64,000 bases of DNA from Mustelus asterias (Eukaryota): contig NC_135807.1 in the NCBI RefSeq assembly GCF_964213995.1, positions 61,628,001-61,692,000 of the forward strand. The letters are read 5' to 3'. Positions 14,863-43,524 of the stretch are shown in pieces. Position 1 is the first letter of the stretch. The number at the start of each line of letters is the position of its first letter. The translations under genes and the position numbers were made by a program. The notes below the pieces were generated by a model. It saw nothing but the letters and a program-made list of their open reading frames with translations, made no database searches and was not told the DNA's origin.

Positions 14863-15213
14863 TTAGAATAGAATAGAATAGAATAGAAACCCTACAGTGC
14901 AGAAGGAGGCCATTCGGCCCATCGAGTCTGCACCGACCACAATCCCACCCAGGCCCTACCCCCACATATTTACCCACTAATCCCTCTAACCTACGCATTT
15001 TTTAGGATTCTAAGGGGCAATTTTTAACCTGGCCAATCAACCTAACCCGCACATCTTTGGACTGTGAGAGGAAACCGGAGCACCCGGAGGAAACCCACGC
15101 AGACACGAGGAGAAAGTGCAAACTCCACACAGACAGTGACCCGAGCCGGGAATCGAACCCGGGACCCTGGAGCGGTGAAGCAGCAGTGCTAACCACTGTG
15201 CTACCGTGCAGCC
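14863..15213 (-). mobile_element. HE1 (V-SINE), full length with (TAGAA)n tail; duplicate at 27768-28118
   Basis: Colinear with 5206-5538. Confidence 0.92.
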
Positions 15214-17870: not shown

Positions 17871-17904
17871 TACCTGTACTTCATCTTGCTGCCACATGTT
17901 TTAC

Positions 17905-18180
17905 CACAGCTGATCACCATGTTGTGTTATTATAATAACATAATACCTTGGACTAATTCACTCTACAAGTCAAAAGACAAACAATCACTCATAAGGGATT
18001 GGGTAAACACGCTTGGCTTCATTTTTTTAAAGACTAAGTGCATGCGAACAGTTATACATATGTATAAAGCTTGAAGACATCAGAGGTGTGTGTGCTCTGC
18101 TCAAAGCAAAAGTGAAACTAAGACTGGATCACACAACACATTTCCATTCTAGTGATGCCATGCCTTAAAAGCATATTCCA
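17905..18180 (-). mobile_element. 5' LTR and PBS of the gypsy relic; duplicate at 30810-31085
   Basis: Minus-strand junction ...CAACA|TGGTGATCAGC at 17920/17919; shares CAATCACTCATAAGGGATT with 3771-3789. Confidence 0.55.
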
Positions 18181-19030
18181 CCCATCCCCACTGTCCGGGG
18201 AAAGAAGATCTAGGTCCTTGTCTTTAGACTAAGCAAGACCAATCAGATTCTAATTCAATGTGCAGGGTATGCGGGTGGCTGGTAACACTCAGTGTAACTG
18301 AACTGAGCACCATAACTGATTCTCCCATTCACCATCCCTGACTACCCAACTATCCCCCCGATCTGACTCTACTAGCCCTCCCCAACCCACCCCAATTTTC
18401 CAATGACACCCCCAACCACCTGAATACAAACCACCTCACCGACCCATCCACTTTACGGAGTCACTCACTCTCTCACTTACCTGTTCACTTACTCAGTCAC
18501 TTAGACTTGGACCTTTCAAAACTTACCTGTGCATGGCAACTACTGTGGTGAAAAGGAGGTGTGTCCTCCCTTCTACTGTCTCTTGTTATACCTGACAATC
18601 TTCTCCAGCATGCTGACACATCAATGCTTCAACCAGTATTGGAAAGCCACGCTGGAAAATTGTAAGAAATAAATATTTGCTGACAGCATCAATGCATTCA
18701 GCATCAAAACTGACTGGAAGCTCTGGGCCATTGTCATGTTTTGCAATTGCCGCTCATGTACTGCATAGTGCACATGGATAATTTGAAACCCAATCTAGTC
18801 GATAGTTACTTACAAATGTCACAAAGTTGCTTTTATCTAAATGAGTTGAAAGAATACAAATGCTCCTACTATGTGCTGGAGCCAAGCTGAAGTTAAGCTA
18901 TTCTGATGGTTTCAGATTTCTGGTTCCTCTGAATAGACAATAGCCACATGTGGGGGGGGGGGGGGTAGAGAAAACTCCCATGACTACAAGATTGCGTAAT
19001 TATACCTGACTTCCTTCTTCATTTTCACAG

Positions 19031-19210
19031 GCTGAATTTAGAATTGTTTACAGCGAAAGATGTCATGGAGCGTCAAGTAAAGGTCCTTCACCTGAGGGAA
19101 AAGGTCTCTTCCCTGGCTGCACTTCTTCTGGAGACTAACCATGGTGGATTCCCTGTTATTTATCAACTAGAACAAGCCCATGAGGAAGTATTTATAGGAA
19201 GCATCACCAG
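19031..19210 (+). CDS. CLC chloride channel/transporter (ClC-6/7-like) exon, CBS1 domain, copy 1
   Basis: TTCTTCATTTTCACAG| ... |GTGAAC; 180 bp, phase 2-2; LNLELFTAKDVMERQVKVLHLREKVSSLAALLLETNHGGFPVIYQLEQAHEEVFIGSITR has the TAxDVM, HxGFPV and GxIxR CBS1 motifs. Confidence 0.88.
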
Positions 19211-19586
19211 GTGAACAATTTATGTGCTAGAACCCCACTGGTGTTGTCACTTAATGTTATGAATGAATGTTGATGTATTGTATCGGCCTGATGGTTTGCA
19301 CCTTTGAACAATAAAGAACCACTGAGCAGCTGGTAGTAGTAACCATCATGTCAGGAGTGTTGAAACAAACAGTTTTATAATGATGCATGAGCAAATCTAA
19401 ATCCGAACCACATTGGTTGGGAAAGAATGATTTCAATTTAACTCCTAGTTGTCCAAAGGAACTTTTGATTTAAAAAATGCATGTGATATTAAATGAAATG
19501 AAAAGAATTCACAGGAAACAGTCACATCTAATGGTTTTTATAGCAGTTGGCATTAATTGTTAACAAAATATTTCGCAGAACTTTGC

Positions 19587-19901
19587 CTATAGAATCTCTA
19601 CAGTGCAGAAGGAGGCCCATTGAGCCTTTGCCGACAACAATCCCACCCAGGCCCCATTCCCGTAACCCCATGTATTTACTCTGCTGGTCCTCCTGACACT
19701 AAGGGGCAATTTAGCATGGCCAATCAACCTAGCGTGCACATCTTTGGACTGTGGGAGGAAACTGGAGTACCCGGAGGAAACCCACACAGACATGGGGAGA
19801 ACGTGTAAACTCTACACAGATACTGACCCAAGCCAGGAATCGAACTTGGGTCCCTGGCGCTGTGAGGCAGCAGTGCTAACCACAGTGCCATTGTGCCGCC
19901 C
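19587..19901 (-). mobile_element. HE1 (V-SINE), older copy; duplicate at 32502-32816
   Basis: Colinear with other HE1 copies, more diverged. Confidence 0.9.
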
Positions 19902-20589
19902 AAAGCTTTAGCCTCTGAATCAAAGTGAGAAACCACATTCTCACTGATATATATATATATGTAAGGTGCTGGCCAGTTTGCTCTCAGTATTTTGCATAAA
20001 ATTCCTCAAGTGGGTGTGAAGATAAACGGAAATTGCATTCTGCTTATTCTGAAATAAGAAAGCGCCTTTCTGTTGCTCAGTATTTGGTGTGTTGTTTGTT
20101 TGAAAACTCTAGAAATATATCAGAGGTCTTTGCCAGCTGGACAAGAATGGTGTAAGACAATCCAACAAAAAAAGTAAAGCACTAAAAACAAATAATTAAG
20201 ATGTATTATGGGACACTGGTCACAAAACTCCCAGCTGTGTTTGAAAACAAAATCTATTTTAATTTATGTAGTTACACTGTGCAGTTGATACAAGAACAGA
20301 TAAGCTAGCAGTGGATACTCTACCACAGCCATGTGGTCTAACTGACAATCTGACAACAGTTTCTGTATTTTTGAAGTGCTTTCTTAGTGTTACTCCTCAT
20401 TCCTTTCTGTTATTTACTAACTTTAGCTGAGAGAGTAGGTGAGTAACCTTCTTGCAAACATCTGTGAATGTCATCAAGAGATACATAAGTTTGAGAACGA
20501 TTCTCCCCTCGGAAAAATTGAGATGCTCATATTTATGCAACACTTGTTATGCCACCTAAATGTCTCAGATTACTTCCACAATAAATTCC

Positions 20590-20810
20590 TTTTTGTTTAG
20601 AAGTATTGTTTAGAAGTATAAGATTGTTGTTCATTGGGGGAAAACAGCAGTCATTCTGTCTGAACAATTCCCTAATAACTAACATCAATAAGATGAATGC
20701 TGCTACTTAGTGAAGGTTAAACGCTAGCCAGGATACCAGAAGAACTCCCACTATTCAAGTAATGTCCGCGGGATCTTTTAATGTTTAGATAGAGAGGTCA
20801 TCGGTCTCTT
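20590..20810 (-). mobile_element. Degenerate Deu-type SINE; duplicate at ~33505-33725
   Basis: AGCCAGGATACC...GGGATCTTTTA is the reverse complement of the Deu-domain motifs seen at 23775-23835. Confidence 0.45.
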
Positions 20811-20977
20811 CCAAAGATTTTCCTCCTCTTCTAGAGTCAGATACAAGTGAAATACAGAATTAACGGGGGGTATATTATGGAGGTGGCGGGGTCTCAGCTA
20901 CCAGCTGGATGCTTGGTGAGAAACCCATGTTTTCTTCTTCGGAGCCGGCCCATTGAAATATGAGCCAATCAGGCCAT

Positions 20978-22494
20978 CAAGAACAAAGAACAAAGAACAA
21001 AGAACAATACAGCACAGGAACAGGCCCTTCGGCCCTCCAAGCCCGCGCCGCTCCCCGGTCCAGGATTGAATCCTGAATCCAGGGTCCCCGCCCAATTTTC
21101 TAGCCTATCTACATACTAATATCCTATCCCCGAGATGTCCCTCACAGCTATGATGCTTTGTTCATCACAACCTATTAACTCACCCCTACCCCCCCATTCC
21201 AGACCATGTGATCTCCAGGGAGAGGCGAAAACCCAGAGTGAAAACCCCAGGGCCAATAAGGGGAAAAAAAATCTGGGAAATTCCTCTCCGACCCCCTGAG
21301 GCGATCGAAACGAGTCCAGGAGATCACACTGGCCCTGATCGGAAAATGCTTCCCAACCCTATTCATTTCCACTTCCACGAACACCATATGAATTCCCTGC
21401 CCCCGAGACAGGTTCCCAACTATCCGCAGTCTCGCTCTGTACTGGCACCAGCAAGATGATCATAGAATGAAGCCTTGAAATGAGAAACAAAGAACAATTA
21501 GCCCGCGCCGCTCCCTGGTCCAAACTAGACCACTCTTTTGTATCCCTCCATTGCCACTCCGTTCATATAGCTGTCTAGATAAGTCTTAAACGTTCCCAGT
21601 GTGTCCGCCTCCACCACCTTGCCCGGCAACCCATTCCAGGCCCCCACGACCCTCTGTGTAAAATATGTCCTTCTGATATCTGTGTTAAACCTCCCCCCCT
21701 TCACCTTGAACCTATGACCCCTCGTGAACGTCACCACCGACCCGGGGAAAAGCTTCCCACCGTTCACCCTATCTATGCCTTTCATAATTTTATGCACCTC
21801 TATTAAGTCTCCCTCATCCTCCGTCTTTCCAAGGAGAACAACCCCAGTTTCCCCAATCTCTCCTCATAACCAAGCCCCTCCATACCAGGCAACATCCTGG
21901 TAAACCTCCTCTGTACTCTCTCCAAAGCCTCCACGTCCTTCTGGTAGTGTGGCGACCAGAACTGGACGCAGTATTCCAAATGCGGCCGAACCAACGTTCT
22001 ATACATCTGCAACATCAGACCCCAACTTTTATACTCTATGCCCCGTCCTATAAAGGCAAGCATGCCATATGCCTTCTTCACCACCTTCTCCACCTGTGAC
22101 GTCACCTTCAAAGATCTGTGGACTTGCACACCCAGGTCCCTCTGCGTCTCTACACCCTTTATGGTTCTTCCATTTATCGTGTATCTCCTCCCTACATTAT
22201 TCCCACCAAAATGCATCACTTCGCATTTTTATCAGGATTGAACTCCATCTGCCATTTCTTTGCCCAAATTTCCAGCCTATCTATATCCTTCTGTAGCCTC
22301 TGACAATGTTCCTCACTATCTGCAAGTCCTGCCAGTTTTGTGTCGTCCGCAAACTTACTGATCACCCCAGTTACACCTTCTTCCAGATCATTTATATAAA
22401 TCACAAACAGCAGAGGTCCCAATACAGAGCCCTGCGGTACACCACTAGTCACAGGCCTCCAGCCGGAAAAAGACCCTTCCACTACCACCCTCTG
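20978..22494 (-). mobile_element. Young 5'-truncated CR1 LINE with long 3' UTR and (TTCTTTG)n tail; duplicate at 33893-35407
   Basis: [51 protein letters not shown]; the two copies have frameshifts at different places. Confidence 0.93.
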
Positions 22495-22999
22495 GTAGGC
22501 CTTACCTGGGATCAAGGACCGTGGGGGCAAGAAGTCCTGCCTGAGAGCTGCCAGCAAATCAGAGGCTGGCAGCTCTTTTGCTCAGCAGTGCCACTGAGGA
22601 GGTGGTGGCTGCTATTGGAACAATCTTTAGCCCGATGCTCAGGATTGCAAAGTGACCCCGGTTGGAGGTAAATGATAGAGGAGGGGGCTTCATGGAGTTG
22701 GAGATCCTGGGGCAGAGGGGTGAGGGGGATTAGCAGCAAAGGCAGGGGCAGGGGCTGGGTCTTAACAACCCCCTTTCCCAACGCCATGTGCCTCATTCAG
22801 GCACTGAATTCCCTTACATGAGAACTCCCTGCCTGGAAAATGATAAGCAACATGCACAGGTTTGTTTGTCACGCTCCCTGCGTGGCGAGACCCCCCCAAC
22901 AGCCACTGGGTTAATACCAGTGGCAGCAGGCTAATGCCCTTATGGGTTTTTTTTTGCTACATAAAAGCCTCAGTTGGCAGAGAAGCAGGGAGGCCATCC

Positions 23000-23183
23000 A
23001 TTTAGCATGGCCAATCAACCTAGCGTGCACATCTTTGGACTGTGGGAGGAAACCGGAGTACCCGGAGGAAACCCACACAGACATGGGGAGAACGTGTAAA
23101 CTCCAGACAGATACTGACCCAAGCCAGGAATCAAACTTGGGTCCCTGGCACTGTGAGGCAGCAGTGCTAACCACGGTGCCATT
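23000..23183 (-). mobile_element. HE1 5' half; duplicate at 35913-36096
   Basis: Very similar to 19710-19893. Confidence 0.85.
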
Positions 23184-23629
23184 GAGCTGGAGTCGGGAAT
23201 GTGGTGGGACCCCCACATACCACCATCCTAACTAATTAAATGCCACCAACACCTCCAAACTTGTCACCAAAGGGTGAGGGGGGAAGGAGTGGGGAGGGGG
23301 GAACAGAGGTATAAAATACTAACCCTAAAGTCATCATGGGGAGTAATGTAGCTGTATCAAATGTTGGCATTTGTCTGTGTATTGATTCCACATCACTAAC
23401 TGGGAAATCATGAAGGCATTGTGGAAGCGGGTTGACTAAATATATTCTTCGACAAATTTAGGTTGTGGATTCTTTGCTGAATAGCATTAGCTATTTGTCA
23501 TAAAATTAAAGCTGAATCGCCTTTGTAAAATTTATTTTTCATTTGCTTTTCATAAAAATGAATGAATATAAATCATTTTAGAATATTGTAGATTTGTTCT
23601 TTTCTCACTTGAGTCCAGTTAGAGTGACA

Positions 23630-24038
23630 ACCATGGCTCAGTTGGTAGGACTTTCACCTCTGAGTAACAATGTTCTGAGCTCCAATGCATTACTGAGGGA
23701 GTACTGCACAGGCAGAGGTGCCATCTTTCAGATGAGACTTTGGACCCAGGTCGCATCTGCTCACTTGGATGGTTGTAAAAGATCCATGACACTATTTTGA
23801 AGAAGAATAGGGAAGTTATTCCTGATGTCCTGGCCTAAATTTACCAGTCAATCAATATAATAAAAAGAATTAGCAAGTCATTATCCCATTGCCATCTGTG
23901 GGGGTTTGCTGTGCATAGATTGCCATGTTTCCAACGCCATTAGAGTGACGACACTTCAAAAAGTACCTAATTAGCTATAAAGTTCTTTGAGACATGCTTT
24001 AGAAAGGTGCTAGATAAATGCATGTCTTTCTTTTCTTT
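23630..24038 (+). mobile_element. Deu-type SINE (SacSINE1/AmnSINE1-like); duplicate at 36543-36951
   Basis: TGGCTCAGTTGGTAG head, TACTGAGGGAGTACTGCAC, GATGAGAC, AAAGATCCATGACACTATTT, L2-like tail GCTAGATAAATGCATGTCTTTC. Confidence 0.75.
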
Positions 24039-24041
24039 TAG

Positions 24042-24203
24042 GAAAGGGAAAATTAGGAGATGATATGAGTGCAGTTTTCAAAATTCTAAAGCAACAAGAT
24101 AGTGTAGACTATGTTAATGTACTTCACCTTGTCCAGAACAGTCGAACCAGAGGACACAGCCTGAGCTTGAAGGGGGGCCAATTCAAAACCACTCTACAAA
24201 ACA
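24042..24203 (+). mobile_element. Short CR1 fragment; duplicate at 36955-37116
   Basis: Translation SRTRGHSLSLKGGQFKT. Confidence 0.6.
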
Positions 24204-25590
24204 ATGGGCTGGATTTTGCAGTGATAATAACAGTGAAACCCTCAGTGTTTGTTGTCATTACTCCACCCAAAACTGGCAGCAACTTCAGAAGTCGGTATAT
24301 GCGCAGAATATCATAGAAATCCAATATTTGCTGTCAGTGACTCTACTCTGCTTCAGTGGGGGCGCTACTGAGGTTCTCCCAGGCTACATCCTGAAGTAAT
24401 CTGTGAATAGATAAAACCATCCATTTTTATGCTATTAATCTCATGGTTAAAAACCTCGGCAAAGCTACATCTTATTGAATGATGTGTAACTAACTTTATA
24501 ATTACACAGCCAAGCATCCTCACTGGTCCTGAAAAGCAAATCTAAAATTTGTGGAATGTCAAATTTCTCCATTGTGATAAAATTCAACATATTTTAAAAA
24601 TAATGTTTTTTAAAAAGAAAATGCGATAAACGATCCGGCAGTATCTGTAGACAGAGAAACAGAGTTAACAGCTGGAAATTTAAGGGACCATTTGGAACAG
24701 GTTTGGAGTTGGTGATGCACGTGGTGGCTTAAAATCAGAACAGAAAACATGAGGCCCAAAGTGCAACATTTTCACATTGTTTCCACACTTCACAGTGACA
24801 TGGAGGCAGCCTTTGCACATCAACAAAGGGGGAAGTAATTAAGCTACTGAATAGGCCCATTGACTGCAATTATATGGTGCTTTTTAAATTTTACTAATGG
24901 AGCATGTTAAATGTAGGGCTTCAGAAAGGAGGTGGAGATTAAGGGGGAGCTCAGTTCTGTCTCTCTCTCACTGAATTGTACAGGAGGGTGGAGCAACATG
25001 GGCACTGGCAACTGAAGGCAGGCGTGGGCATAAGGTGTCAGTTCTGTGAGGGCCAGTTGCCAAGTTATCATTGAGGCAATGGAATTTGCTCCAAAAAAGA
25101 GTGAGGGAAAGTTGAGGATGTCTGCAAATAATGTCTTGCACCAAGAGAGAGGCCACCTAGCTCATCCATGCACCTCATCCACCCAGGCTTCAGGGCCCCA
25201 TTGAGGAGGAGCTGCAGAGAAAGGCAGAGCTTCAGGCACTAGCAGCAGCAATCCCAGTGTCAGAAGGTTTCTGGACACTAAGGGAATCATTGGGTGGGAA
25301 TGTGAAGTTGATGTAGATGTGATTCGTGGAAAAAGGCTCAATAGGCCATATGACCAACATCTGCTTCCATCTCTGGTGTCCTTGGCCTGAATTTTACGCT
25401 CCCCCACTGACAGATTTGGAGATGGGAAGTAAGTGCAAAATTCCTCAGATGGGCTACCCACTGGGTTACCACCTTCCCACATCCCTCAGCAATTTTATGC
25501 TTTGGGCAAGGTCCTGTCCTTACCCCAATTAAGGCCCTTAATTGGCCAATTATTGACCACTTAAAGGCTGTTTGCCGCTCAGCCTCAATT

Positions 25591-27083: not shown

Positions 27084-27283
27084 NNNNNNNNNNNNNNNNN
27101 NNNNNNNNNNNNNNNNNNNNNNNNNNNNNNNNNNNNNNNNNNNNNNNNNNNNNNNNNNNNNNNNNNNNNNNNNNNNNNNNNNNNNNNNNNNNNNNNNNNN
27201 NNNNNNNNNNNNNNNNNNNNNNNNNNNNNNNNNNNNNNNNNNNNNNNNNNNNNNNNNNNNNNNNNNNNNNNNNNNNNNNNNNN
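27084..27283. other. Assembly gap (200 N)
   Basis: Run of exactly 200 N. Confidence 1.
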
Positions 27284-30200
27284 CCAGCTTCTACTGACCT
27301 GTTGGCCATGTTGTGAATGCACCTTCCTTGGCCATGAAGTCCTGGGGTGGGACTCAAACCCAGAGCTTCTGGCTCAGAGGCAGGGACACTATCCATTGCG
27401 CCACAAGGCTTCTTAATAAATTATCATTTTCCCATTATATTGGTATTCTTGCAAAGTGCCATGAGTGCAAGATGAAAAGCTTTGACATGTCTCTTTTTTC
27501 AACAATATTATCTTCATGTGTGACTGATGAAGTTGTTGAAAAATATCAGCTCACAAAGATTCTGATGTGATGACATTTATATTTTCCAGTAGATTGATGG
27601 TGTGAACCATGTATTTACCGCTCAATGTCTTGTTATGCACATCATCATCATCATCTTCTGGTTCATGAGTCACTTTATGTATATGTTTCTGATGGGATAG
27701 CGACAGTCTTTCTCATTGCTTGAAGGTACCTATTGTTTATAGTCTGTTTAGATCAGTGCATGGCTCTTTAGAATAGAATAGAATAGAATAGAAACCCTAC
27801 AGTGCAGAAGGAGGCCATTCGGCCCATCGAGTCTGCACCGACCACAATCCCACCCAGGCCCTACCCCCACATATTTACCCACTAATCCCTCTAACCTACG
27901 CATTTTTTAGGATTCTAAGGGGCAATTTTTAACCTGGCCAATCAACCTAACCCGCACATCTTTGGACTGTGAGAGGAAACCGGAGCACCCGGAGGAAACC
28001 CACGCAGACACGAGGAGAAAGTGCAAACTCCACACAGACAGTGACCCGAGCCGGGAATCGAACCCGGGACCCTGGAGCGGTGAAGCAGCAGTGCTAACCA
28101 CTGTGCTACCGTGCCGCCCTTTGTAGCTGCATTGGCCTTTACTCTAGTGCACTGCTGCTGTCAATGGCCCTTTCTGCCACATGCCTTGCAGAATTGATGG
28201 AAAGCTGGGCATTGCAGAAGATCACACCTCCTATGTGGCTTGCTAGGCTTAGGTGTTCTAGTGAATGTGCTGACAATTGGTTTGTGCTTAGGGTCTGTAA
28301 GCTTTGGTAATCTGCGAGGATCGCTTCACACTTCCATGAGTCGCTCCTCGATGCAGTACGTTTTAGGCCTGTCTAGCAGATCTTTCTAGAAAGCTTCCAT
28401 GGAAGTGGATGTGATTACCAGCTCAACAATTCTGCCTGCTTTTTCAGCATTTGAAAAATCACAGTACATACCCTTTTCTCTGCACTTGTTGACGAAGTGG
28501 TCTGTGGATTCTGTAGGCTGCTGTTAAAATGACTTGAACTCTTGTTAATGAATGAGGAAATTTATGTTGATTTTGAAATGGACTTCCAAAGTAGTCCATA
28601 TCTTTTGGGGAACCTTAGCTCTCCTTCCGTTATAGGTCTTAGAGTCACAGACCTTTACAGCATGGAAACAGGCCCTTCAGCTCAACTCGTCCATGCCGCC
28701 CAGTTTTTACCACTAAGCTAGTCCCAATTGCCTGTATTTGGCCCATATCTCTCTATACTCATCTTACCTGTTAACATGTTCAACCTGTGTATATTTCCAT
28801 TCCCAACTGCTAAGCAAATTTTTAGGCCTTCCATGTCTTGTTCGGATACACCTGAATCAGGAAGCCATAGCTTTGTACGCTGCTTAAACATTTTGAATTT
28901 GCTTTGTAGATCAGCTGCATTCTAAATCATTCTGACAATATCCCTTTGACCTTCCTTTTTCTGGACCAGCCTCGGATGTGTGTTGCTGTAGTTGCTTTTG
29001 CATGCTTGTCTGTAGCTCCGACCACGAAGGCAAGTTGTGGATGGAATACACCGCAGAGTAATAGAGTCTCTGCTTTTTATTCAATTCTCTGTTCAGTAAC
29101 TCCCAAAGCCGCCTCTTATAATTGTGATCTTCTCTGGCCTGATTTTTATGACTGTTACTTTGTCTTTTGTTTTGTTTGACTTTCCCTTGCTCAATGTCAA
29201 TCTGGCCCACATCCTGGTCACTCACCTTTCTCCACTGAGCTAACCTTGTGCTGGTCCTCGCGATGTGTTGTTCTATTCGAGGATCTGACAGGCTATGAGC
29301 TGCAATCTCACCACAAGAGATTCATCTGCTTGCCAGCTCTTTATTTGAGCATTAGCTTGCTGATGTGTTTCCAAAGCTTGTCTTGACAGTGTTCACACTG
29401 CATTTTCAGTACACTCCAATGCTGCATCTTCAGATCAAGTCTGAGCAAAATAACAAAGGTCATCTCGTGTCATGTTGCACAATCTAAGGCTGTTCGCCGT
29501 GTTGTTTTTTTAATGCGTTCACAGGATGTGGACATCACTGGCTAGGCCATCCTGAGTTGCCCTTGAGAAAATGGTAGTGAGCTGCCTTCTTGAACTACTG
29601 CAGTCCCTGAGGTCTAGGTACACACATAGCGCTGTTACGGAGGGAATGCCAGGATTTCCACCCAGCGACAATAAAGGGATGGTGATATATTTACAAGTCA
29701 GGATGGTGAGTGACTTGGAGGGGACCTCCAGGTACTGGTGTTCCCAGATTTCACCTGCTCTTGTCCTTCTAGTTGGTAATGGTCGTGGGTTTGGAAGATG
29801 GTGTCTAATGAACTTTGGTAAGTTGCTGCAGTACATCTTGTGGATGGTACACATAGTTGCCATTGTTCGCCAGTGGTGGAGGGAGTGAACGTTTGTGTAA
29901 GGGGTACCAATCAAGCAGGCTGCTTTGTCCTGGATGGTGTCAAGCTTCTTGAGCATTGTTGAAGCTGCATTCATCCAGACAAGGGGAGAGTATTATATTA
30001 CACAGCTGACTTGTGCCTTGTAGATGGTGTACAGACTTTCGGGAGTAAGGATGGGAGTTACTCACCACAAATTCCTAGCCTTTTGCCTGCTCTTGTACTC
30101 AAAGTATTTATGTGGCTAGTCCAGTTCAATTTCTGGTCAATGGTAACCCCCAGGATGTTGATAGTGTTGGATTCAGTGATGGTAATGCCATTGAATGTCA

Positions 30201-31945
30201 AGGGATGATGGTTAGATTTTCTCTTGTTGGAGATGGTGATTGCCTGGTACTTGTGTGGCACAAATATTTTTTGCCACATGTCAGCCCAAGTCTGAATATT
30301 GTCCAGGTCTTGCTGTATTTGGACATGGACTGCTTCAGTATCTGAGGAGTCACAAATGGTGCTGAACATTGTACAGTCATCAGTGAGCATCCTCACTTCT
30401 GACCTTATGATGGAAGAAAGATCATTTATGAAGCAGCTGAAGATTGTTGGGCCTAGGACATTACCCTGAGGAACTCCTGCAGTGATGTCCTGGAGCTAAG
30501 ATGACTGACTTCCAACTATCACAACCATCTTACTTTGTGCCAGGTAGGACTCCAACCAGCAGAGAGTTTCCCCCGATTCACATTGACTCCAGTTTTGCTA
30601 GGGCTCCTTGATGCCACACTTGGTTGACAGCTACCTTGATGTCAAGGGCAGTTACTCTCACCTCACCACTGGAGTTCACCTCTTTTGTACATGTTTGAAC
30701 CAAGGCTGTAATGAAGTCAGGAGCTGAACAACCCTTGCAGAATCCAAACTTAGCATCACTGAGGAGGTGATATTGTACCTGTACTTCATCTTGCTGCCAC
30801 ATGTTTTACCACAGCTGATCACCATGTTGTGTTATTATAATAACATAATACCTTGGACTAATTCACTCTACAAGTCAAAAGACAAACAATCACTCATAAG
30901 GGATTGGGTAAACACGCTTGGCTTCATTTTTTTAAAGACTAAGTGCATGCGAACAGTTATACATATGTATAAAGCTTGAAGACATCAGAGGTGTGTGTGC
31001 TCTGCTCAAAGCAAAAGTGAAACTAAGACTGGATCACACAACACATTTCCATTCTAGTGATGCCATGCCTTAAAAGCATATTCCACCCATCCCCACTGTC
31101 CAGGGAAAGAAGATCTAGGTCCTTGTCTTTAGGCTAAGCAAGACCAATCAGATTCTAATTCAATGTGCAGGGTATGCGGGTGGCTGGTAACACTCAGTGT
31201 AACTGAACTGAGCACCATAACTGATTCTCCCATTCACCATCCCTGACTACCCAACTATCCCCCCGATCTGACTCTACTAGCCCTCCCCAACCCACCCCAA
31301 TTTTCCAATGACACCCCCAACCACCTGAATACAAACCACCTCACCGACCCATCCACTTTACGGAGTCACTCACTCTCTCACTTACCTGTTCACTTACTCA
31401 GTCACTTAGACTTGGACCTTTCAAAACTTACCTGTGCATGGCAACTACTGTGGTGAAAAGGAGGTGTGTCCTCCCTTCTACTGTCTCTTGTTATACCTGA
31501 CAATCTTCTCCAGCATGCTGACACATCAATGCTTCAACCAGTATTGGAAAGCCACGCTGGAAAATTGTAAGAAATAAATATTTGCTGACAGCATCAATGC
31601 ATTCAGCATCAAAACTGACTGGAAGCTCTGGGCCATTGTCATGTTTTGCAATTGCCGCTCATGTACTGCATAGTGCACATGGATAATTTGAAACCCAATC
31701 TAGTCGATAGTTACTTACAAATGTCACAAAGTTGCTTTTATCTAAATGAGTTGAAAGAATACAAATGCTCCTACTATGTGCTGGAGCCAAGCTGAAGTTA
31801 AGCTATTCTGATGGTTTCAGATTTCTGGTTCCTCTGAATAGACAATAGCCACATGTGGGGGGGGGGGGGGGGGGGGGGGGTAGAGAAAACTCCCATGACT
31901 ACAAGATTGCGTAATTATACCTGACTTCCTTCTTCATTTTCACAG

Positions 31946-32125
31946 GCTGAATTTAGAATTGTTTACAGCGAAAGATGTCATGGAGCGTCAAGTAAAGGTC
32001 CTTCACCTGAGGGAAAAGGTCTCTTCCCTGGCTGCACTTCTTCTGGAGACTAACCATGGTGGATTCCCTGTTATTTATCAACTAGAACAAGCCCATGAGG
32101 AAGTATTTATAGGAAGCATCACCAG
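31946..32125 (+). CDS. CLC chloride channel/transporter exon, CBS1 domain, copy 2
   Basis: No differences seen from 19031-19210, splice sites included. Confidence 0.88.
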
Positions 32126-35100
32126 GTGAACAATTTATGTGCTAGAACCCCACTGGTGTTGTCACTTAATGTTATGAATGAATGTTGATGTATTGTATCG
32201 GCCTGATGGTTTGCACCTTTGAACAATAAAGAACCACTGAGCAGCTGGTAGTAGTAACCATCATGTCAGGAGTGTTGAAACAAACAGTTTTATAATGATG
32301 CATGAGCAAATCTAAATCCGAACCACATTGGTTGGGAAAGAATGATTTCAATTTAACTCCTAGTTGTCCAAAGGAACTTTTGATTTAAAAAATGCATGTG
32401 ATATTAAATGAAATGAAAAGAATTCACAGGAAACAGTCACATCTAATGGTTTTTATAGCAGTTGGCATTAATTGTTAACAAAATATTTCGCAGAACTTTG
32501 CCTATAGAATCTCTACAGTGCAGAAGGAGGCCCATTGAGCCTTTGCCGACAACAATCCCACCCAGGCCCCATTCCCGTAACCCCATGTATTTACTCTGCT
32601 GGTCCTCCTGACACTAAGGGGCAATTTAGCATGGCCAATCAACCTAGCGTGCACATCTTTGGACTGTGGGAGGAAACTGGAGTACCCGGAGGAAACCCAC
32701 ACAGACATGGGGAGAACGTGTAAACTCTACACAGATACTGACCCAAGCCAGGAATCGAACTTGGGTCCCTGGCGCTGTGAGGCAGCAGTGCTAACCACAG
32801 TGCCATTGTGCCGCCCAAAGCTTTAGCCTCTGAATCAAAGTGAGAAACCACATTCTCACTGATATATATATATATGTAAGGTGCTGGCCAGTTTGCTCTC
32901 AGTATTTTGCATAAAATTCCTCAAGTGGGTGTGAAGATAAACGGAAATTGCATTCTGCTTATTCTGAAATAAGAAAGCGCCTTTCTGTTGCTCAGTATTT
33001 GGTGTGTTGTTTGTTTGAAAACTCTAGAAATATATCAGAGGTCTTTGCCAGCTGGACAAGAATGGTGTAAGACAATCCAACAAAAAAAGTAAAGCAGTAA
33101 AAACAAATAATTAAGATGTATTATGGGACACTGGTCACAAAACTCCCAGCTGTGTTTGAAAACAAAATCTATTTTAATTTATGTAGTTACACTGTGCAGT
33201 TGATACAAGAACAGATAAGCTAGCAGTGGATACTCTACCACAGCCATGTGGTCTAACTGACAATCTGACAACAGTTTCTGTATTTTTGAAGTGCTTTCTT
33301 AGTGTTACTCCTCATTCCTTTCTGTTATTTACTAACTTTAGCTGAGAGAGTAGGTGAGTAACCTTCTTGCAAACATCTGTGAATGTCATCAAGAGATACA
33401 TAAGTTTGAGAACGATTCTCCCCTCGGAAAAATTGAGATGCTCATATTTATGCAACACTTGTTATGCCACCTAAATGTCTCAGATTACTTCCACAATAAA
33501 TTCCTTTTTGTTTAGAAGTATTGTTTAGAAGTATAAGATTGTTGTTCATTGGGGGAAAACAGCAGTCATTCTGTCTGAACAATTCCCTAATAACTAACAT
33601 CAATAAGATGAATGCTGCTACTTAGTGAAGGTTAAACGCTAGCCAGGATACCAGAAGAACTCCCACTATTCAAGTAATGTCCGCGGGATCTTTTAATGTT
33701 TAGATAGAGAGGTCATCGGTCTCTTCCAAAGATTTTCCTCCTCTTCTAGAGTCAGATACAAGTGAAATACAGAATTAACGGGGGGTATATTATGGAGGTG
33801 GCGGGGTCTCAGCTACCAGCTGGATGCTTGGTGAGAAACCCATGTTTTCTTCTTCGGAGCCGGCCCATTGAAATATGAGCCAATCAGGCCATCAAGAACA
33901 AAGAACAAAGAACAAAGAACAATACAGCACAGGAACAGGCCCTTCGGCCCTCCAAGCCCGCGCCGCTCCCCGGTCCAGGATTGAATCCTGAATCCAGGAT
34001 CCCCGCCCAATTTTCTAGCCTATCTACATACTAATATCCTATCCCCGAGATGTCCCTCACAGCTATGATGCTTTGTTCATCACAACCTATTAACTCACCC
34101 CTACCCCCCCATTCCAGACCATGTGATCTCCAGGGAGAGGCGAAAACCCAGAGTGAAAACCCCAGGGCCAATATGGGGAAAAAAAATCTGGGAAATTCCT
34201 CTCCGACCCCCTGAGGCGATTGAAACGAGTCCAGGAGATCACACTGGCCCTGATCGGAAAATGCTTCCCAACCCTATTCATTTCCACTTCCACGAACACC
34301 ATATGAATTCCCTGCCCCCGAGACAGGTTCCCAACTATCCGCAGTCTCGCTCTGTACTGGCACCAGCAAGATGATCATAGAATGAAGCCTTGAAACGAGA
34401 AACAAAGAACAATTAGCCCGCGCCGCTCCCTGGTCCAAACTAGACCACTCTTTTGTATCCCTCCATTGCCACTCCGTTCATATAGCTGTCTAGATAAGTC
34501 TTAAACGTTCCCAGTGTGTCCGCCTCCACCACCTTGCCCGGCAACCCATTCCAGGCCCCCACGACCCTCTGTGTAAAATATGTCCTTCTGATATCTGTGT
34601 TAAACCTCCCCCCCTTCACCTTGAACCTATGACCCCTCGTGAACGTCACCACCGACCCGGGGAAAAGCTTCCCACCGTTCACCCTATCTATGCCTTTCAT
34701 AATTTTATGCACCTCTATTAAGTCTCCCCTCATCCTCCGTCTTTCCAAGGAGAACAACCCCAGTTTCCCCAATCTCTCCTCATAACCAAGCCCCTCCATA
34801 CCAGGCAACATCCTGGTAAACCTCCTCTGTACTCTCTCCAAAGCCTCCACGTCCTTCTGGTAGTGTGGCGACCAGAACTGGACGCAGTATTCCAAATGCG
34901 GCCGAACCAACGTTCTATACATCTGCAAATCAGACCCCAACTTTTATACTCTATGCCCCGTCCTATAAAGGCAAGCATGCCATATGCCTTCTTCACCACC
35001 TTCTCCACCTGTGACGTCACCTTCAAAGATCTGTGGACTTGCACACCCAGGTCCCTCTGCGTCTCTACACCCTTTATGGTTCTTCCATTTATCGTGTATC

Positions 35101-37152
35101 TCCTCCCTACATTATTCCCACCAAAATGCATCACTTCGCATTTATCAGGATTGAACTCCATCTGCCATTTCTTTGCCCAAATTTCCAGCCTATCTATATC
35201 CTTCTGTAGCCTCTGACAATGTTCCTCACTATCTGCAAGTCCTGCCAGTTTTGTGTCGTCCGCAAACTTACTGATCACCCCAGTTACTCCTTCTTCCAGA
35301 TCATTTATATAAATCACAAAAAGCAGAGGTCCCAATACAGAGCCCTGCGGTACACCACTAGTCACAGGCCTCCAGCCGGAAAAAGACCCTTCCACTACCA
35401 CCCTCTGGTAGGCCTTACCCGGGATCAAGGACCGTGGGGGCAAGAAGTCCTGCCTGAGAGCTGCCAGCAAATCAGAGGCTGGCAGCTCTTTTGCTCAGCA
35501 GTGCCACTGAGGAGGTGGTGGCTGCTATTGGAACAATCTTTAGCCCGATGCTCAGGATTGCAAAGTGACCCCGGTTGGAGGTAAATGATAGAGGAGGGGG
35601 CTTCATGGAGTTGGAGATCCTGGGGCAGAGGGGTGAGGGGGATTAGCAGCAAAGGCAGGGGCAGGGGCTGGGTCTTAACAACCCCCTTTCCCAACGCCAT
35701 GTGCCTCATTCAGGCACTGAATTCCCTTACATGAGAACTCCCTGCCTGGAAAATGATAAGCAACATGCACAGGTTTGTTTGTCACGCTCCCTGCGTGGCG
35801 AGACCCCCCCAACAGCCACTGGGTTAATACCAGTGGCAGCAGGCTAATGCCCTTATGGGTTTTTTTTTGCTACATAAAAGCCTCAGTTGGCAGAGAAGCA
35901 GGGAGGCCATCCATTTAGCATGGCCAATCAACCTAGCGTGCACATCTTTGGACTGTGGGAGGAAACCGGAGTACCCGGAGGAAACCCACACAGACATGGG
36001 GAGAACGTGTAAACTCCAGACAGATACTGACCCAAGCCAGGAATCAAACTTGGGTCCCTGGCACTGTGAGGCAGCAGTGCTAACCACGGTGCCATTGAGC
36101 TGGAGTCGGGAATGTGGTGGGACCCCCACATACCACCATCCTAACTAATTAAATGCCACCAACACCTCCAAACTTGTCACCAAAGGGTGAGGGGGGAAGG
36201 AGTGGGGAGGGGGGAACAGAGGTATAAAATACTAACCCTAAAGTCATCATGGGGAGTAATGTAGCTGTATCAAATGTTGGCATTTGTCTGTGTATTGACT
36301 CCACATCACTAACTGGGAAATCATGAAGGCATTGTGGAAGCGGGTTGACTAAATATATTCTTCGACAAATTTAGGTTGTGGATTCTTTGCTGAATAGCAT
36401 TAGCTATTTGTCATAAAATTAAAGCTGAATCGCCTTTGTAAAATTTATTTTTCATTTGCTTTTCATAAAAATGAATGAATATAAATCATTTTAGAATATT
36501 GTAGATTTGTTCTTTTCTCACTTGAGTCCAGTTAGAGTGACAACCATGGCTCAGTTGGTAGGACTTTCACCTCTGAGTAACAATGTTCTGAGCTCCAATG
36601 CATTACTGAGGGAGTACTGCACAGGCAGAGGTGCCATCTTTCAGATGAGACTTTGGACCCAGGTCGCATCTGCTCACTTGGATGGTTGTAAAAGATCCAT
36701 GACACTATTTTGAAGAAGAATAGGGAAGTTATCCCTGATGTCCTGGCCTAAATTTACCAGTCAATCAATATAATAAAAAGAATTAGCAAGTCATTATCCC
36801 ATTGCCATCTGTGGGGGTTTGCTGTGCATAGATTGCCATGTTTCCAACGCCATTAGAGTGACGACACTTCAAAAAGTACCTAATTAGCTATAAAGTTCTT
36901 TGAGACATGCATTAGAAAGGTGCTAGATAAATGCATGTCTTTCTTTTCTTTTAGGAAAGGGAAAATTAGGAGATGATATGAGTGCAGTTTTCAAAATTCT
37001 AAAGCAACAAGATAGTGTAGACTATGTTAATGTACTTCACCTTGTCCAGAACAGTCGAACCAGAGGACACAGCCTGAGCTTGAAGGGGGGCCAATTCAAA
37101 ACCACTCTACAAAACAATGGGCATGGATTTTGCAGTGATAATAACAGTGAAA

Positions 37153-37562: not shown

Positions 37563-38205
37563 CACCTCTATCCGCAGTGCCCTTTTATCTTTGGGTGCCA
37601 CCGCCCACTCAAAGTCTGGTAACACAGGACCTCCTTCCACCCCACCCTCTGCCTGGCCTCTCCTCCGACACCCCAATCTTCCACTGTCCACCTCACAGGC
37701 CTCCCTACCACCTCTGCCCTCAGCTTTCCAAAAATGACCACTTTCTGGAATCCACAGCCCTGGGGACTGTGTGCAGTTCTAGTCCTGTCTCCCTCTGCAG
37801 GGCAGGAGAGCTGCCGGCCAATCACATTGGTTGACCGTTCTCTAAGGCAGGACTTCCTCCCGAGTGAAGGGCGGTAGCCCTGCCTGCAGCCAATTACTCC
37901 TTAAATCATGGTGGGGCAGACAGTGTTGGTGGGAATGTGTTCTCCGGATGGTGGGAAGGGAAAACCTGGCCTTTATGTTCTTAACAGCTGGTCCCATGTA
38001 TATCCAGTTTGCTGTTATGAGGACTCAGGGTAAAGGTGTTCCCACTGTTGCAGCAGGGCATGGGGTGGTTTACTCTTTAGCAACTTTTACAGTACTGGAT
38101 ATAGGGGTGCTTGGTGCGAACACTGCATGCAAATAAAGGGAGAGTCGGGGAATCTTCCATTTTGCGTTAGTGATATTCTTTCAATTGGTGAGAAAAATAA
38201 ACAGA

Positions 38206-38304
38206 AATTCTGATGCAAGATCTACTCCAGAATCATTAACCCATCTTATCTCTTTACAGGTGTCAATAGACCTGCTATGTATTTCAAGCATTTTCTGTTT
38301 GTAT
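38206..38304 (+). mobile_element. Decayed Penelope-type terminal repeat
   Basis: TTCTGATGCAAG...CATTAAC...AGACCTGCT...AGCATTTTCTG aligns with the reverse complement of 3855-3950. Confidence 0.5.
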
Positions 38305-38360
38305 GAACATCTTCTAATTGTTGAATTCTCAATTTTACTTCTAATTTATTTTGGGAGTAG

Positions 38361-38454
38361 GTTGGAACTTTGTCGAATCTTGGAAAATGAAATGCTTTTT
38401 GAAACCCAAAATGAGGGGAATTACAAACAACATGTTCAGATTAACTACAATGAG
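38361..38454 (+). CDS. CLC exon, end of CBS1 and linker
   Basis: TTTATTTTGGGAGTAG| ... |GTGAGG; 94 bp, phase 2-0; (R)LELCRILENEMLFETQNEGNYKQHVQINYNE continues GSITR in frame. Confidence 0.75.
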
Positions 38455-38464
38455 GTGAGGATTG

Positions 38465-38552
38465 CCTTGATCAGCTGTGATCACATTGAATGGTGGTGCA
38501 GGCTCGAAGGCCCCAGTGGCCAACTCCTGCACCCACTTTCTATGTTTCTGTG
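38465..38552 (+). mobile_element. CR1/HER1 3' tail just after the donor site
   Basis: GATCACATTGAATGGTGGTGCAGGCTCGAAGG...GGCCAACTCCTGC...TTCTATGTTTCT. Confidence 0.7.
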
Positions 38553-40238
38553 AATGATCACAGAAAGTAATAATATTCATCTTCTCCAGTGCCCACTTGC
38601 CTTATGAACTCAACTTCTCGGTGCCTTAATTTTTATTCCTCATTTAGATCTTGCTCGCCAAGATTCCCACTTGTTCCGGGCAGCAAGTGGCAAAATATCA
38701 TATCGCCCAAATGCTACCCGCTGACATCAGAACTGTGTTGGGAATGCATCCAGCCATTGTGCAGGGTTTTCTTGGGAATTTGGGATGCTATGGGGAAAGG
38801 AGGGGTGTGTGGAACATACTGCTGCGGGTGAAACCTACACTATAATACTTCCCAGTTTTGTAGATGTGCTAGCTGGCATAAACCATAGGGGTGAACTGTA
38901 CACCTTTTGTGTTACTGTACATCCCTGGCAGCCCTTCTCTGCCATTGCTCTCTATCAAGCTAAGTACTTGGGGAGGATTGAAAATTGTCATCAGATTTCC
39001 AACAGAGAAACCCAGCTTGCATCTGAACCTCAACATCCCAGGTAACAACTTGTCTCAGCTACAGCATATTTTTTTATAAGAACAGTTGGAGGCATGAAGA
39101 TTACAATTTGCCACACTAATCCTCTAATGAACAATTCCACAGGAACTGACAAAAACAAGAGTCATATATGCCTTCAGTGACACATAATGCCCTCAATGTG
39201 GAAACTTATGAGAAGCGATTATAACAATAGCTAGGCACTATTGCAAATCTGCTGGTGGCATGAAGGGGTCTGCTGATAGCAATTTCTAGGCTACTGCATT
39301 GAAATGCTCTTAAAATTAAGCATGTTTTCAATAGCAATTGAATTCATATGCTGCAGGATAAATTATTGGGTCCATAACCATAACTATATTCTTAAATGAC
39401 TTAACAGTTGCATTGAACTGTGACTTACATCACATACTTTTTATTACTCTGACCTAAATGGCTAGAAGGGTATGAGACAGGATGGTTACCATTAAGGGCA
39501 GTGTGTAGACCAACACAAGAGAGTTATTTATTTAATCTGTACACATGAACTACAGGAAACATGATAGCAACCCTTGGGCATTAGGCCCATTCCCTCACTA
39601 ATATTACCTAATGGATACCGTATGTATTCTGTATTTGAATGTGATTCTGATTTTTGTTTCAAATATCAATGCCCAGTGTTCAGACTGTGCATCTGCAGAT
39701 ACTGGGGCTGAAAGTCTGCAATGTTGTTTGTGCTGCAATAATTCCACCAGATCAACACTTCTGCCCACTCATGAATTAAACTTCTATCCTGTCAAAATTC
39801 ACAGGATTGGCTCATTTTCATCAACCAAAAGTGTATCCCTCATGTAACCTGGTAATGAATTACTGGGAAGGGGAGGGGGGGGGGGGGAAGGAAACTTGTT
39901 GCAGGATTTAAAAGCTGGAGTGAACCTACAGACCACATGCAGCACATTTATATTTCACTTTAGAAGACTCTAGGTTGCAAAAATGTCTGGAGTGACATTT
40001 CAAATCTCTGAATTTATCATACCCTGTTCATGTTCCCAGTTAAGTGGATTCTGCCATTGTTATTAGCATAGGAGAGGCTCATGCATGAGGACTGCGGGAG
40101 TGTATAATGGAAAGGATGTGGAGATGCTGGGGTTGGATTGGGGTGGGCACAGTAAGAAGTCTCACAACAGCAGGTTGAAGTCCAACAGGTTTATTTGGAA
40201 TTACAAGATTTCGGAGTGCTGCTCCTTCATCAGGTGAG

Positions 40239-40367
40239 TGCTTTTCGAAACCCAAAATGAGGGGAACTACAAGCAACATGCTCAGATTAACTACAATGTG
40301 GTGAGAATTGCCATGATCAGCCGTGATCACATTGAATGGTGGTACAGGCTCGAAGGGCCGAATGGCC
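40239..40367 (+). pseudogene. Captured copy of CLC exon 3' part, donor site and intron start (source 38393-38521)
   Basis: Ungapped 129-bp alignment with ~12 mismatches. Confidence 0.9.
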
Positions 40368-40368
40368 C

Positions 40369-40405
40369 TCACCTGATGAAGGCGCAGCGCTCTGAAAGCT
40401 CGTGA
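40369..40405 (+). ncRNA. Minimal type I hammerhead ribozyme motif, partly decayed; mirror copy on minus strand at 40201-40237
   Basis: TCAC-CTGATGA-A-GGCGC-AGC-GCTCT-GAAA-GC-TC-GTGA: stem I TCAC/GTGA, both core boxes, palindromic AGCT helix III, one stem II mismatch. Confidence 0.65.
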
Positions 40406-41544
40406 TTCCAAATAAACCTGTTGGACTTTAACCTGGTATTGTGAGATTTCTTACAATGGAAAGGATGACAGGCAAAGTAGACAAGTCATTCTCCAGTGCT
40501 GGTTGTCTATTCAGAGCAGGGCCAACGTATGTGCTTTTTCTCCATATTTCCATAGAAAATATTCACTGATCTAAGGAAAGAATAGTTCACATATATATTA
40601 TTGTAGTCAGACATGTATTTATTTTTGATTTTTAAGCAGTCTTGTAACAATTTCCTGTCTTACATATTTGCCTTTATATGCCACTTAGAATTTCTGATGT
40701 TCTAAACTTTCCCCATACATGCACCAACCCACAAGTTGTTACCTTCGAGCTGAATTCTAAATTATGTTTAAGTTGTGTGGTTGTGTCGAAGCAAATAAAG
40801 AAACAGCACTACTGCTCTATGCTGCTGGACCTAACAAATTCAATGCCATAGTTAAGGATAGTGCTACAAATTCCATGAACTCACCAGGTGTCAAAGATAG
40901 GAGAGCATGAGACCAAGGAGGTTCTGAGCAAAGAGTTCAGCAGGGGGTTCTGAGTTCAAAGTTTGACTGACAGTTTAAAGAGTTTAGTAAAGGATTAGCT
41001 AACCTTGATGTGAATTCCAAATAGAAGTTTGTTTGTATAAGAAAATAACCACTAAGGAGATTTAAAAGCTTTGACTAGGCTTTATGAATGGGAGATGTGT
41101 TTCACTATCAAGTATGTAGGAGTGAGAACTGCATAAGATTGTTAGAAGTTTATTTTTTTACTTCTCCTGTGGTCTGTCCATGGTGGATACTGGGTGAGTG
41201 ACTATGGAGTTGGAAGGTATAATGGGCCACTGGGACATGAGTTGGTATTGAGTTGGCATTGATGAGCTGTGGGGTTGTGGGGGGGGGTTATGAAATGGTA
41301 TTGAGATGATATGGGGGGTATGAGGGACAATAGGAGTGAATGGGATTCAGGAGTTGGCATTGTTGGCATGGAGGGTATGAGGGTCCAGGATAGTGGTTGG
41401 AGGGTGGATGTTGAAGTGAGGGAGTGAGGGGTCAGGGCTAAAAGGCTTAAAATTCTATTACTGAGTGAGTCGGGATATTTCCCAACTTGTGCTACCTGCC
41501 TTGGTAGCCAAAATCAGTCCCCTGGTGTTTGTTTCTACGTGTGC

Positions 41545-42732
41545 ATTGATGAGCTTTACCTCACTGTCAACTCTCTAACCCTTTGAAAGTCTCTAAGTGA
41601 TCAGACTGCTTGTCCAACATCCAATACTGGACGAGCAGAATATTCCTCCAACTAAATATTGGGAAGAACAAAGCCAATGTCCCTGCCACAAATGTTATTC
41701 CCTGGCGACTGACTGAATCTGTCTCTCTGGCAAATGTCTGATGGCAACCTTGTTATCATACATGATCCTGAGATGAGCTTCTGAGTTCATACCCATCCCA
41801 TCACTCGGACCATCTAATTCCACTTCCATAATGTCACCAGAGTCTGCCCCTGATTCAGTGCAGCTGCTGTTGAAACCCTCTTTCATGCCTCTAGACTGAA
41901 CTATTTCAATGCACTCCTGGCTCACCTCCTATATTTTGCCCTCCTTAAACGTGAACGTATTCAAAATCTGCTGCCCTTGTCCTAACCAGCACCATGTCAC
42001 ATTCACCAATCACTCCTGTGTTCACTGACTTATAATGGCTCCCAGATAAGCAGCAGCATTAGAACATAGAACAGTACAGCACAGAACAGGCCCTTCGGCC
42101 CACGATGTTGTGCCGAGCTTTATCTGAAACCAAGATCAAGCTATCCCACTCCCTATCATCCTGGTGTGCTCCATGTGCCTATCCAATAACCGCTTAAATG
42201 TTCCTAAAGTGTCTGACTCCACTATCACTGCAGGCAGTCCATTCCACACCCCAACCACTCTCTGCGTAAAGAACCTACCTCTGATATCCTTCCTATATCT
42301 CCCACCATGAACCCTATAGTTATGTCCCCTTGTAATAGCTCCATCCACCCGAGGAAATAGTCTTTGAGCATTGTTTTAAAATTCCCATCTCTGTTTTCAA
42401 ATTCCACAGAGAACTCACCTCATCCTATCTCTGTAACCTTCTCCAGCCCTACAACTCTCTGAAGTACCTGCACTCATGCAATTCCGACCTCTTGTGCGTT
42501 GTCCAACTGTGCCTTCAACAGCCAAGGTCCTAAGTTCTGGAATTTCCTCCTCAAATCTCTCTGCCTCTTCATCTCTCTTTCTGGCTTGAAGGCATTTCTT
42601 AAAACTTTAGCTTCGGTCATGTCCTAAACAGTTTTATTCTGGCTCAATGTCAAATTTTGTTTGACAGTGCTCATGTGAAGTGTCTTGGGATATTTTACTA
42701 TGTTAAAAGCTCTATATAAATCTGAGCTGTTT
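41545..42732 (+). mobile_element. L2-clade LINE 3' part, interrupted by CR1 tail
   Basis: DCLSNIQYWTSRIFLQLNIGK and ETLFHASRLNYFNALLA match L2 RT motifs; tail GTGAAGTGTCTTGGGA...CTATATAAAT. Confidence 0.75.
42060..42367 (-). mobile_element. CR1 3' end
   Basis: ORF 42136-42348 TRGHNYRV...FFTQRVVGVWNGLP. Confidence 0.88.
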
Positions 42733-42772
42733 TTTAAAATTCTGAGTCTTGTTCTTTGTAATTTATGAATAG

Positions 42773-42865
42773 ATATCAGTCAAGTTGCTGAACTCAACAA
42801 AGATAAATCTTCTCCTGAATAAGTACAGAACTGACAACCGATATAAGGACTACTATGTCAATCTG
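42773..42865 (+). CDS. CLC exon, CBS1-CBS2 linker
   Basis: TCTTGTTCTTTGTAATTTATGAATAG| ... |GTAAGC; 93 bp, phase 0-0; ISVKLLNSTKINLLLNKYRTDNRYKDYYVNL joins KPYINQS to give the CLC motif (I/V)xLxPYxNxS. Confidence 0.8.
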
Positions 42866-43524
42866 GTAAGCAGTGAGCCAATTGTACAAAAATCTGCAAT
42901 CAGAGTGTTGACTCTATGTCATTATTTACTGAGCATTTTTGTATGAGCAATAGGGTTTTACATAGACAGTAATTGAATCATTTGTCTGTTGTTTTGTAAT
43001 GGGTTTTGTTAGTCCATAACAGTCTTGTGAAGTTTAAGAGTCTACCTTTATTAGTTATTATACTTCAAACAGAAGACTATCTTGAATACGAAGCTCTAAC
43101 CTTTTTGTTCATTAATGTTGAAAATCTAACTGGTGTAGTTCTTTCAGGAACACGTAACATGTTTATAGTAAATTCCCGCATTCTCCACAAGACTGAGCAT
43201 CACTTATTTCAGTCTATTATGTGATAGTAAATCATTCTGATATTATTATCATTCATGTTCTCTGAACTGTCTACAGTTTGCTCCCTCAATTTTCTTTCGA
43301 CTCTTTGGAGTTTATAATACACACTAAGCACAGTATAATTTCCCTATTGATTTCTTAATTCTATTTATAAGGATTCAATATTGTTATAACCCATTAGATA
43401 TCCTTACTTTCTAAGGCTGTTATGGAATTTTTTATTAATGTAACCATTCCCACAGCTCCCCTACCCACCACTCCCCAATCATATTTCTCTCTTTCTCCTG
43501 AAAATGTTACAGCTATGAATATTA

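Follow-up and report, generated by a model that had tools for sequence, protein, structure and literature searches.

The window, a 64,000-nucleotide stretch of the Mustelus asterias genome, contains an insertion at 40106-40467 in which two inverted arms of a Penelope-like element enclose a copy of an exon end from the same gene. With somewhat better than even confidence, we read it as an old head-to-head insertion whose apex was patched from 1.8 kb away, with nearby chromosomal DNA copied during the joining of two run-off cDNA ends. Templated insertion is a known and rare kind of event; the new part is that fillers from the same locus recur between inverted Penelope-like arms.

The features of the insertion and of its source are collected in Table 1. 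The TSD copies are identical to each other in a within-window comparison, the inverted arms agree at 77 of 87 positions, and the spacer between them aligns without gaps to its source at 117 of 129 positions (E 2e-47 within the window), with an offset of 1,846 nt. A preliminary description of the window had reported the TSD, the 33-nt extension, the arms, and the ungapped spacer copy, and all of them were recovered at the positions given there, as was the local template about 1.8 kb upstream; arm 1 extends 2 nt beyond the end assigned to it, through a TG at 40239-40240 that is common to the source. The last 4 nt of the left TSD, GATG, are common to the 3' end of the element, and this overlap likely represents priming microhomology. 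In longer copies of the element, the tail leads into the ORF start codon. The short-arm boundary together with the tail (40119-40160, minus strand) looks like a branch point and 3' splice site before the ORF start, a resemblance only, similar to the arrangement at the 5' UTR intron of Drosophila Penelope.

Table 1. Positions of the insertion, its parts, and its source in the window
Feature	Positions	Strand	Remarks
Coding exon of CLC chloride channel C-like gene	38362..38454	+	Protein mapping; next exon near 42770
Filler source: exon end, GT donor, intron start	38393..38521	+	117/129 match to spacer
Left TSD	40106..40118	+	13/13 vs right TSD
33-nt tail	40119..40151	-	One arm only
Long arm (pLTR 5' part) with decayed minimal hammerhead	40152..40240	-	Likely transcription start ~40239
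Copy of last 62 nt of CLC exon	40239..40300	+	57/62 identical to source
Copy of donor site and intron start	40301..40367	+	60/67 identical to source
Short inverted arm	40368..40454	+	Core of hammerhead at 40368-40405 with mutated stem II; cut predicted after 40401
Right TSD	40455..40467	+	13/13 vs left TSD

About half of the spacer, from ~40314 onward, is the tail of a multicopy dispersed repeat with matches at 24 other loci examined, which we take to be HE1/HER1-like. The exon part had no match at any other locus examined. Because the rest of the spacer is repeat tail, unique sequence is confined to the exon part and the exon-repeat junction, and it is this junction that fixes the source of the spacer despite the repeat half. 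The match between spacer and source is not due to chance, given its E value within the window and an exon part that matches no other locus examined. The refuting condition of a widespread-repeat spacer, set in the preliminary description, therefore applies to the sequence from ~40314, but not to the exon part and the junction.

The identification of the source as the last 62 nt of a CLC exon with its GT donor and the start of the intron was confirmed by protein mapping. CLC domain matches were found just upstream of the source on the same strand in a profile search of the window, and a Mustelus asterias protein labelled chloride channel protein C-like is identical to the window's exons, 38362-38454 included. 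Five additional proteins of shark, ray, and turtle origin were mapped as well, and this exon shows conservation in the tested shark and ray proteins. The copied exon piece has neither an acceptor nor the first third of the exon and is out of frame. An AG at 40232-40233 in the arm would create a cryptic exon of 67 nt (40234-40300) that stops at codon 9, and 40234-40300 does not form the whole in-frame exon with both splice sites expected of a functional exon duplication. The annotated CLC protein skips the copied piece. The involvement of the host gene looks incidental, and the window copy, which in its letters bears no apparent sign of function, is probably without one; the suggestion of exon capture was overstated.

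Contigs from four public runs, no run being recorded as RNA, were aligned to 38200-43000. In the three runs from other samples, which are ~2% and ~5% diverged, contigs cross from the flank into the element. Joints in the contigs cluster at 40237-40242 in all four runs, and contig ends pile up at 40115, also in four of four. In the ~5% diverged relative (X10), one contig covers 40213-40416 and thus includes the complete spacer with the arm 1 end on one side and arm 2 on the other, which is not the separate arrival of arms and spacer that would have spoken against a single event. No empty site for the insertion was seen in the contigs of the four runs over 38200-43000; such sites are detectable in the relatives, since a younger repeat insertion at 42060-42367 is cleanly absent from the X8 and X10 contigs. 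The filler has a G at the position matching 38426, as does the exon of the relatives, and encodes Ala where the source now encodes Val, so that the copy retains the source allele of the relatives. The insertion is old and fixed across species. An assembly artefact was considered as its origin and ruled out, as the junctions are present in three other runs.

The arm is abundant in the genome (23,231 exact 16-mer matches with one further, last base constrained) and in longer copies runs on into the GIY-YIG end. One truncated copy of 2.2 kb, L190, lies between the same inverted arms and contains RT and GIY-YIG pieces whose identity is 76-81% to RVT_1-bearing shark proteins (E 5e-9 to 4e-6); the GIY-YIG match of these related proteins is weak (E 8e-4, below Pfam's cut-off), and a Pfam search of the decayed L190 frames gave no RT or GIY-YIG match. 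The arm forms the terminal repeat of an EN+ Penelope-like element linked to RT plus GIY-YIG at the C-terminus, and the inverted pLTRs, the tail of 30-40 nt on one end, and the TSD are those of EN+ Penelope-like elements. The Penelope-like family, its minimal type I hammerhead motif, the tail, and the inverted structure were correctly anticipated. All element copies examined were truncated, with the ORF start visible after the tail. A CX2-5CxxC linker before the GIY-YIG together with a CCHH motif, the definition given for Neptune and Nematis in the available text of PMC8557442, is present in the proteins P0124 and P0126 and decayed in L190; the linker in close proteins has the form CX4CxxC. By this motif, which Nematis also has, the element appears to be Neptune-like. 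Pieces similar to the element protein are also contained in P0133, P0134, and P0138, labelled DnaJ B13, NOXP20-like, and IFIT5-like, and in these host gene models they are probably annotation read-through. Among 59 unselected arms there were 28 TSD-bounded insertion rows, 19 of them inverted, two of which are the same insertion, leaving 18 distinct ones; TSDs measured 10-16 bp in 15 of the 18 other hairpins scored.

The hammerhead conforms to the minimal type I of PMC4209133, with a CUGAUGA and GAAA core, a short stem I, an extra base before stem II, and the palindromic positions 15.2-16.2. Both copies in the window have stem mutations, and self-cleavage is at best predicted for them. An Rfam search of 38000-41500 returned no hammerhead, and monomer folds of the hammerhead were unremarkable (z between -1.25 and 0.71).

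The point at which the arms stop is shared by many copies. Counted by eye, 45 of 100 unselected arms exit the element within ~10 nt of the same point. In 100 rows with a non-G base after the stop point, 14 arms continue as mutated element and 86 exit, adding C in 67 cases, A in 11, and T in 8 (by eye); ~40 of the 67 extra C's, again by eye, cannot be the start of the inverted arm, and many of the others can be so read. Of the 38 copies bearing a TATA motif, 35 have it 30-33 nt upstream, and 26 of the 64 copies examined are without the motif. Because of the stop hotspot, the TATA spacing, and the extra C, the arm end is likely the transcription start of the element RNA, and the extra C may be what copying of the cap would leave. 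A cap-derived base at an L1 junction has been described (PMC11702581), as has an initiator-like site in a pLTR (PMC3846280).

The recurrence of local fillers was assessed in other hairpins of the same element. Exact patterns gave 663 hairpins with a gap of 40-300 nt, and three narrower patterns were enriched for arms stopping at the hotspot; hairpins were chosen by these exact patterns and by eye, and the wide-flank candidates were picked by eye. The search covered flanks of 1.5-5 kb per side, fillers of up to 400 nt, and sources within 3-5 kb. In the 107 distinct hairpins examined, the apex was element only in 60, and 47 had at least 28 nt of foreign filler, 28 of which passed as low repeat (matches at no more than four other loci). 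A match of at least 50 bits in the hairpin's own flank was found for 17 of these 28 fillers, or 15 of 28 after L094 and L098 were dropped, compared with 10 of 244 random 100-nt flank pieces put through the same filter (p 4e-11 vs 15/28). The genome-wide check for nearby-derived spacers proposed in the preliminary description was thereby positive.

Several candidates were rejected: in L094 the whole hairpin is duplicated in inverted orientation 0.6 kb away, in L098 and L183 the filler is adjacent flank folded back, and in L085 and L090 the flank match is below 50 bits. The repeat filter is weak, as L086 passed it although its filler is a dispersed repeat (765 candidates), and this case was also dropped. 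The L174 filler had no second match in a genome search.

Adding four part-repeat fillers (window, L092, L100, and L176), with repeat-only fillers not counted, gave 19 cases. Their sources lie 177-3153 nt from the apex, with a median of 898 and 15 of 19 within 1.3 kb, and these short distances are partly built in by the 1.5-5 kb of flank searched per side. Sources are found to the left of the long arm in 10 cases and to the right in 9, in the same orientation in 11 and the opposite one in 8. The aligned templates span 38-207 nt, with filler-source identity of 81-96%; mean identity is 91.0% between arms and 90.3% between filler and source, with no correlation between the two from locus to locus (rho -0.12, n 19). 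Most junctions have 0-3 nt of microhomology. In L171 and L172, the two arms have identical non-element linkers (palindromes of 21 and 12 nt), and in the L101 apex foreign or untemplated sequence is likewise mirrored on both arms; the mirrored apex sequence of these three points to fold-back synthesis. In the double-segment cases L087 and L171, the template, judged from orientation, would be the strand that resection removes, not the one that it exposes. Fillers in L050 (5033-5100) and L192 (1501-1567) have an 88% match to a long open frame on another chromosome (C8), the only match found; from its motifs, this frame presumably encodes a FAM111-type protease. Local-filler cases numbered 0 of 28 in the unselected TSD-bounded rows and 3 in the first 50 of the 663 hairpins, 9 of which were checked with 5-kb flanks. 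By a very rough inference, scaled for exact-seed loss, local fillers would occur in 0.3-0.5% of insertions.

In the mechanism proposed here, the element protein would nick both target strands 13 nt apart and prime cDNA on both, and two start sites 33 nt apart would yield the long arm with the tail and the short arm without it. The two-arm structure is observed in the window; the mechanism of twin priming has been shown in vitro for an anole element, which nicks and extends both strands with two start sites that bracket the tail (PMC11167929), and would apply to the shark element by analogy. Synthesis of both cDNAs would then end ~120 nt upstream, at the capped 5' terminus of the element RNA, as the hotspot, the TATA, and the extra C suggest. 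Their noncomplementary 3' ends would usually be joined directly, by fold-back, which has been proposed from apex palindromes (PMC3846280), or through a further piece of element RNA. In rare cases, one cDNA end would copy 40-200 nt of DNA within a few kilobases of the break and then be joined. The recurrence of local fillers is observed; a DNA template and copying at the time of joining are proposed. A DNA template is favoured because sources are symmetric in side and orientation and because insertion donors at human breaks are often 0-2 kb away (10.1101/2022.09.30.509517). The small microhomology and the template strand in L087 and L171 argue against a DNA patch made by plain annealing to resected DNA.

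Jumps of the RT onto RNA probably occur, since 60 of 107 apexes are element derived and one filler is a distant coding sequence. The same enzyme could have jumped from the capped RNA end onto nearby nascent RNA, so that unspliced CLC pre-mRNA would have been the template of the short-arm cDNA in the window. This would suit a window filler that is unspliced and, relative to the direction of the gene, comes from upstream, and also the repeat fillers that have better nonlocal matches (e.g., L173, L178, L182, and L186), the small junction microhomology, and the double segments of L087 and L171, which agree with a template that is not the strand exposed by resection. However, an even split of sources between the two sides, mostly at distances within 1.3 kb, is not obviously expected of the RNA of long genes, and no spliced filler was seen among the cases, gene context being known for 1 of the 19 (the window); we consider nascent RNA a rather unlikely template. 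It is more improbable that the fillers arose in two steps, a tight hairpin forming first and its palindrome being broken later and mended by locally templated repair unrelated to retrotransposition. Palindromes are fragile, tight hairpins are the commonest product (the 18 distinct inverted insertions in the 28 TSD-bounded rows), and a per-locus correlation between arm and filler age is absent, all of which would fit such a history. Yet the mean ages of arms and fillers match, the ~5% diverged relative already has the filler, arms beside fillers often reach the inferred RNA start without loss (though the patterns selected for that), and the identical nontemplated linkers shared by the two arms in L171 and L172 point to synthesis during insertion.

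The preliminary description had itself proposed two ribozyme-delimited ends and a route for local exon capture, here taken as ribozyme cleavage setting both ends and functional capture of host exons. Both arms do stop just outside the conserved core of a motif with minimal type I features, but the predicted cut lies ~34 nt inside the arm, which retains the entire uncut core, so that the arm ends (40368 and 40454) are not at the predicted cleavage site, and the arms stop instead at the likely transcription start. Cleavage is also dispensable for insertion, as cleavage mutants insert normally in vitro (Frangieh 2024, PMC11167929), and the copied exon piece is partial, out of frame, and skipped by the annotated protein. 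Ribozyme-set ends with functional exon capture are very improbable, and in the favoured sequence of run-off cDNA synthesis and DNA-templated patching the ribozyme is proposed to be a passenger.

EN+ Neptune-type Penelope-like elements (PMC8557442, PMC3846280, and PMC11167929) share the RT with C-terminal GIY-YIG, the minimal-hammerhead pLTR with TATA and initiator-like site, the head-to-head arms, the one-arm tail (30-40 bp), and the TSD; the available text of these reports maps no apex fillers near the insertion site and ties no arm end to a cap-derived base. Captures between pLTRs in Adineta vaga (PMC3846280) likewise involve unrelated TSD-bounded sequence, an intron-containing host copy, and palindromes at the inverted junction. 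There, a whole gene was moved in trans between direct pLTRs, and the few other captures are noncoding, with no local source given in the available text, whereas the shark fillers are 40-200 nt from the same locus and are backed by a control. Templated insertions of L1, which typically measure <250 bp and have their template within 15 bp, were reported in 22 of 3,598 insertions (10.1101/2024.08.27.596794), with three cases in PMC11702581. They are similar in that a short genomic segment is duplicated at the joining step, in their rough rarity, and in the cap-derived base at the junction, and the shark templates fall under the same 250-bp size. L1 templates are mostly within 15 bp and somatic, whereas those of the shark lie 177-3153 nt away (median ~0.9 kb; adjacent fold-backs L098 and L183 set aside), are germline and fixed across species, and stand between twin run-off cDNAs; Supplementary Fig. 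4d of 10.1101/2024.08.27.596794 and Fig. S10 of PMC11702581 bear on this comparison of distance. Templated insertions at double-strand breaks (10.1101/2022.09.30.509517) resemble the shark fillers in donors at 0-2 kb, short microhomology, and links to resection and R-loops, and differ in arising at enzyme-made breaks in human cells, with donors at other breaks and no retroelement arms. Neither for Penelope-like insertions nor for sharks was a description of locally templated fillers found in the literature searched, which mostly excluded subscription papers, and the pattern is not described in the available text of PMC2377424, PMC9977147, PMC13174262, 10.1101/2024.12.14.628481, and 10.64898/2026.07.22.740005.

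The completion of Penelope-like insertions has been called unvalidated (PMC11167929). The tens of thousands of shark copies form a natural record of the cap-like stop site, the apex fold-back, and mappable fillers, and the joining step can therefore be tested with the in vitro system already at hand as well as in annotated genomes. The fillers also represent a route to small local duplications that is distinct from L1 in distance. A broader and tentative proposal, which falls well short of likely, is that Penelope-like RT, once past the capped RNA end, jumps onto 5'-ended single strands that are set free or made by transcription at the break; hundreds of shark fossil insertions would then record germline break processing at base resolution and would scatter kilobase-range microduplications, including exon ends with splice donors.

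Elsewhere in the window, 14379-24238 and 27284-37152 form a 9.87-kb direct duplication (99.7%) across a 200-N gap at 27084-27283. It adjoins a G-rich satellite, doubles a CLC exon (19032-19211 and 31947-32126), and is likely an assembly artefact.
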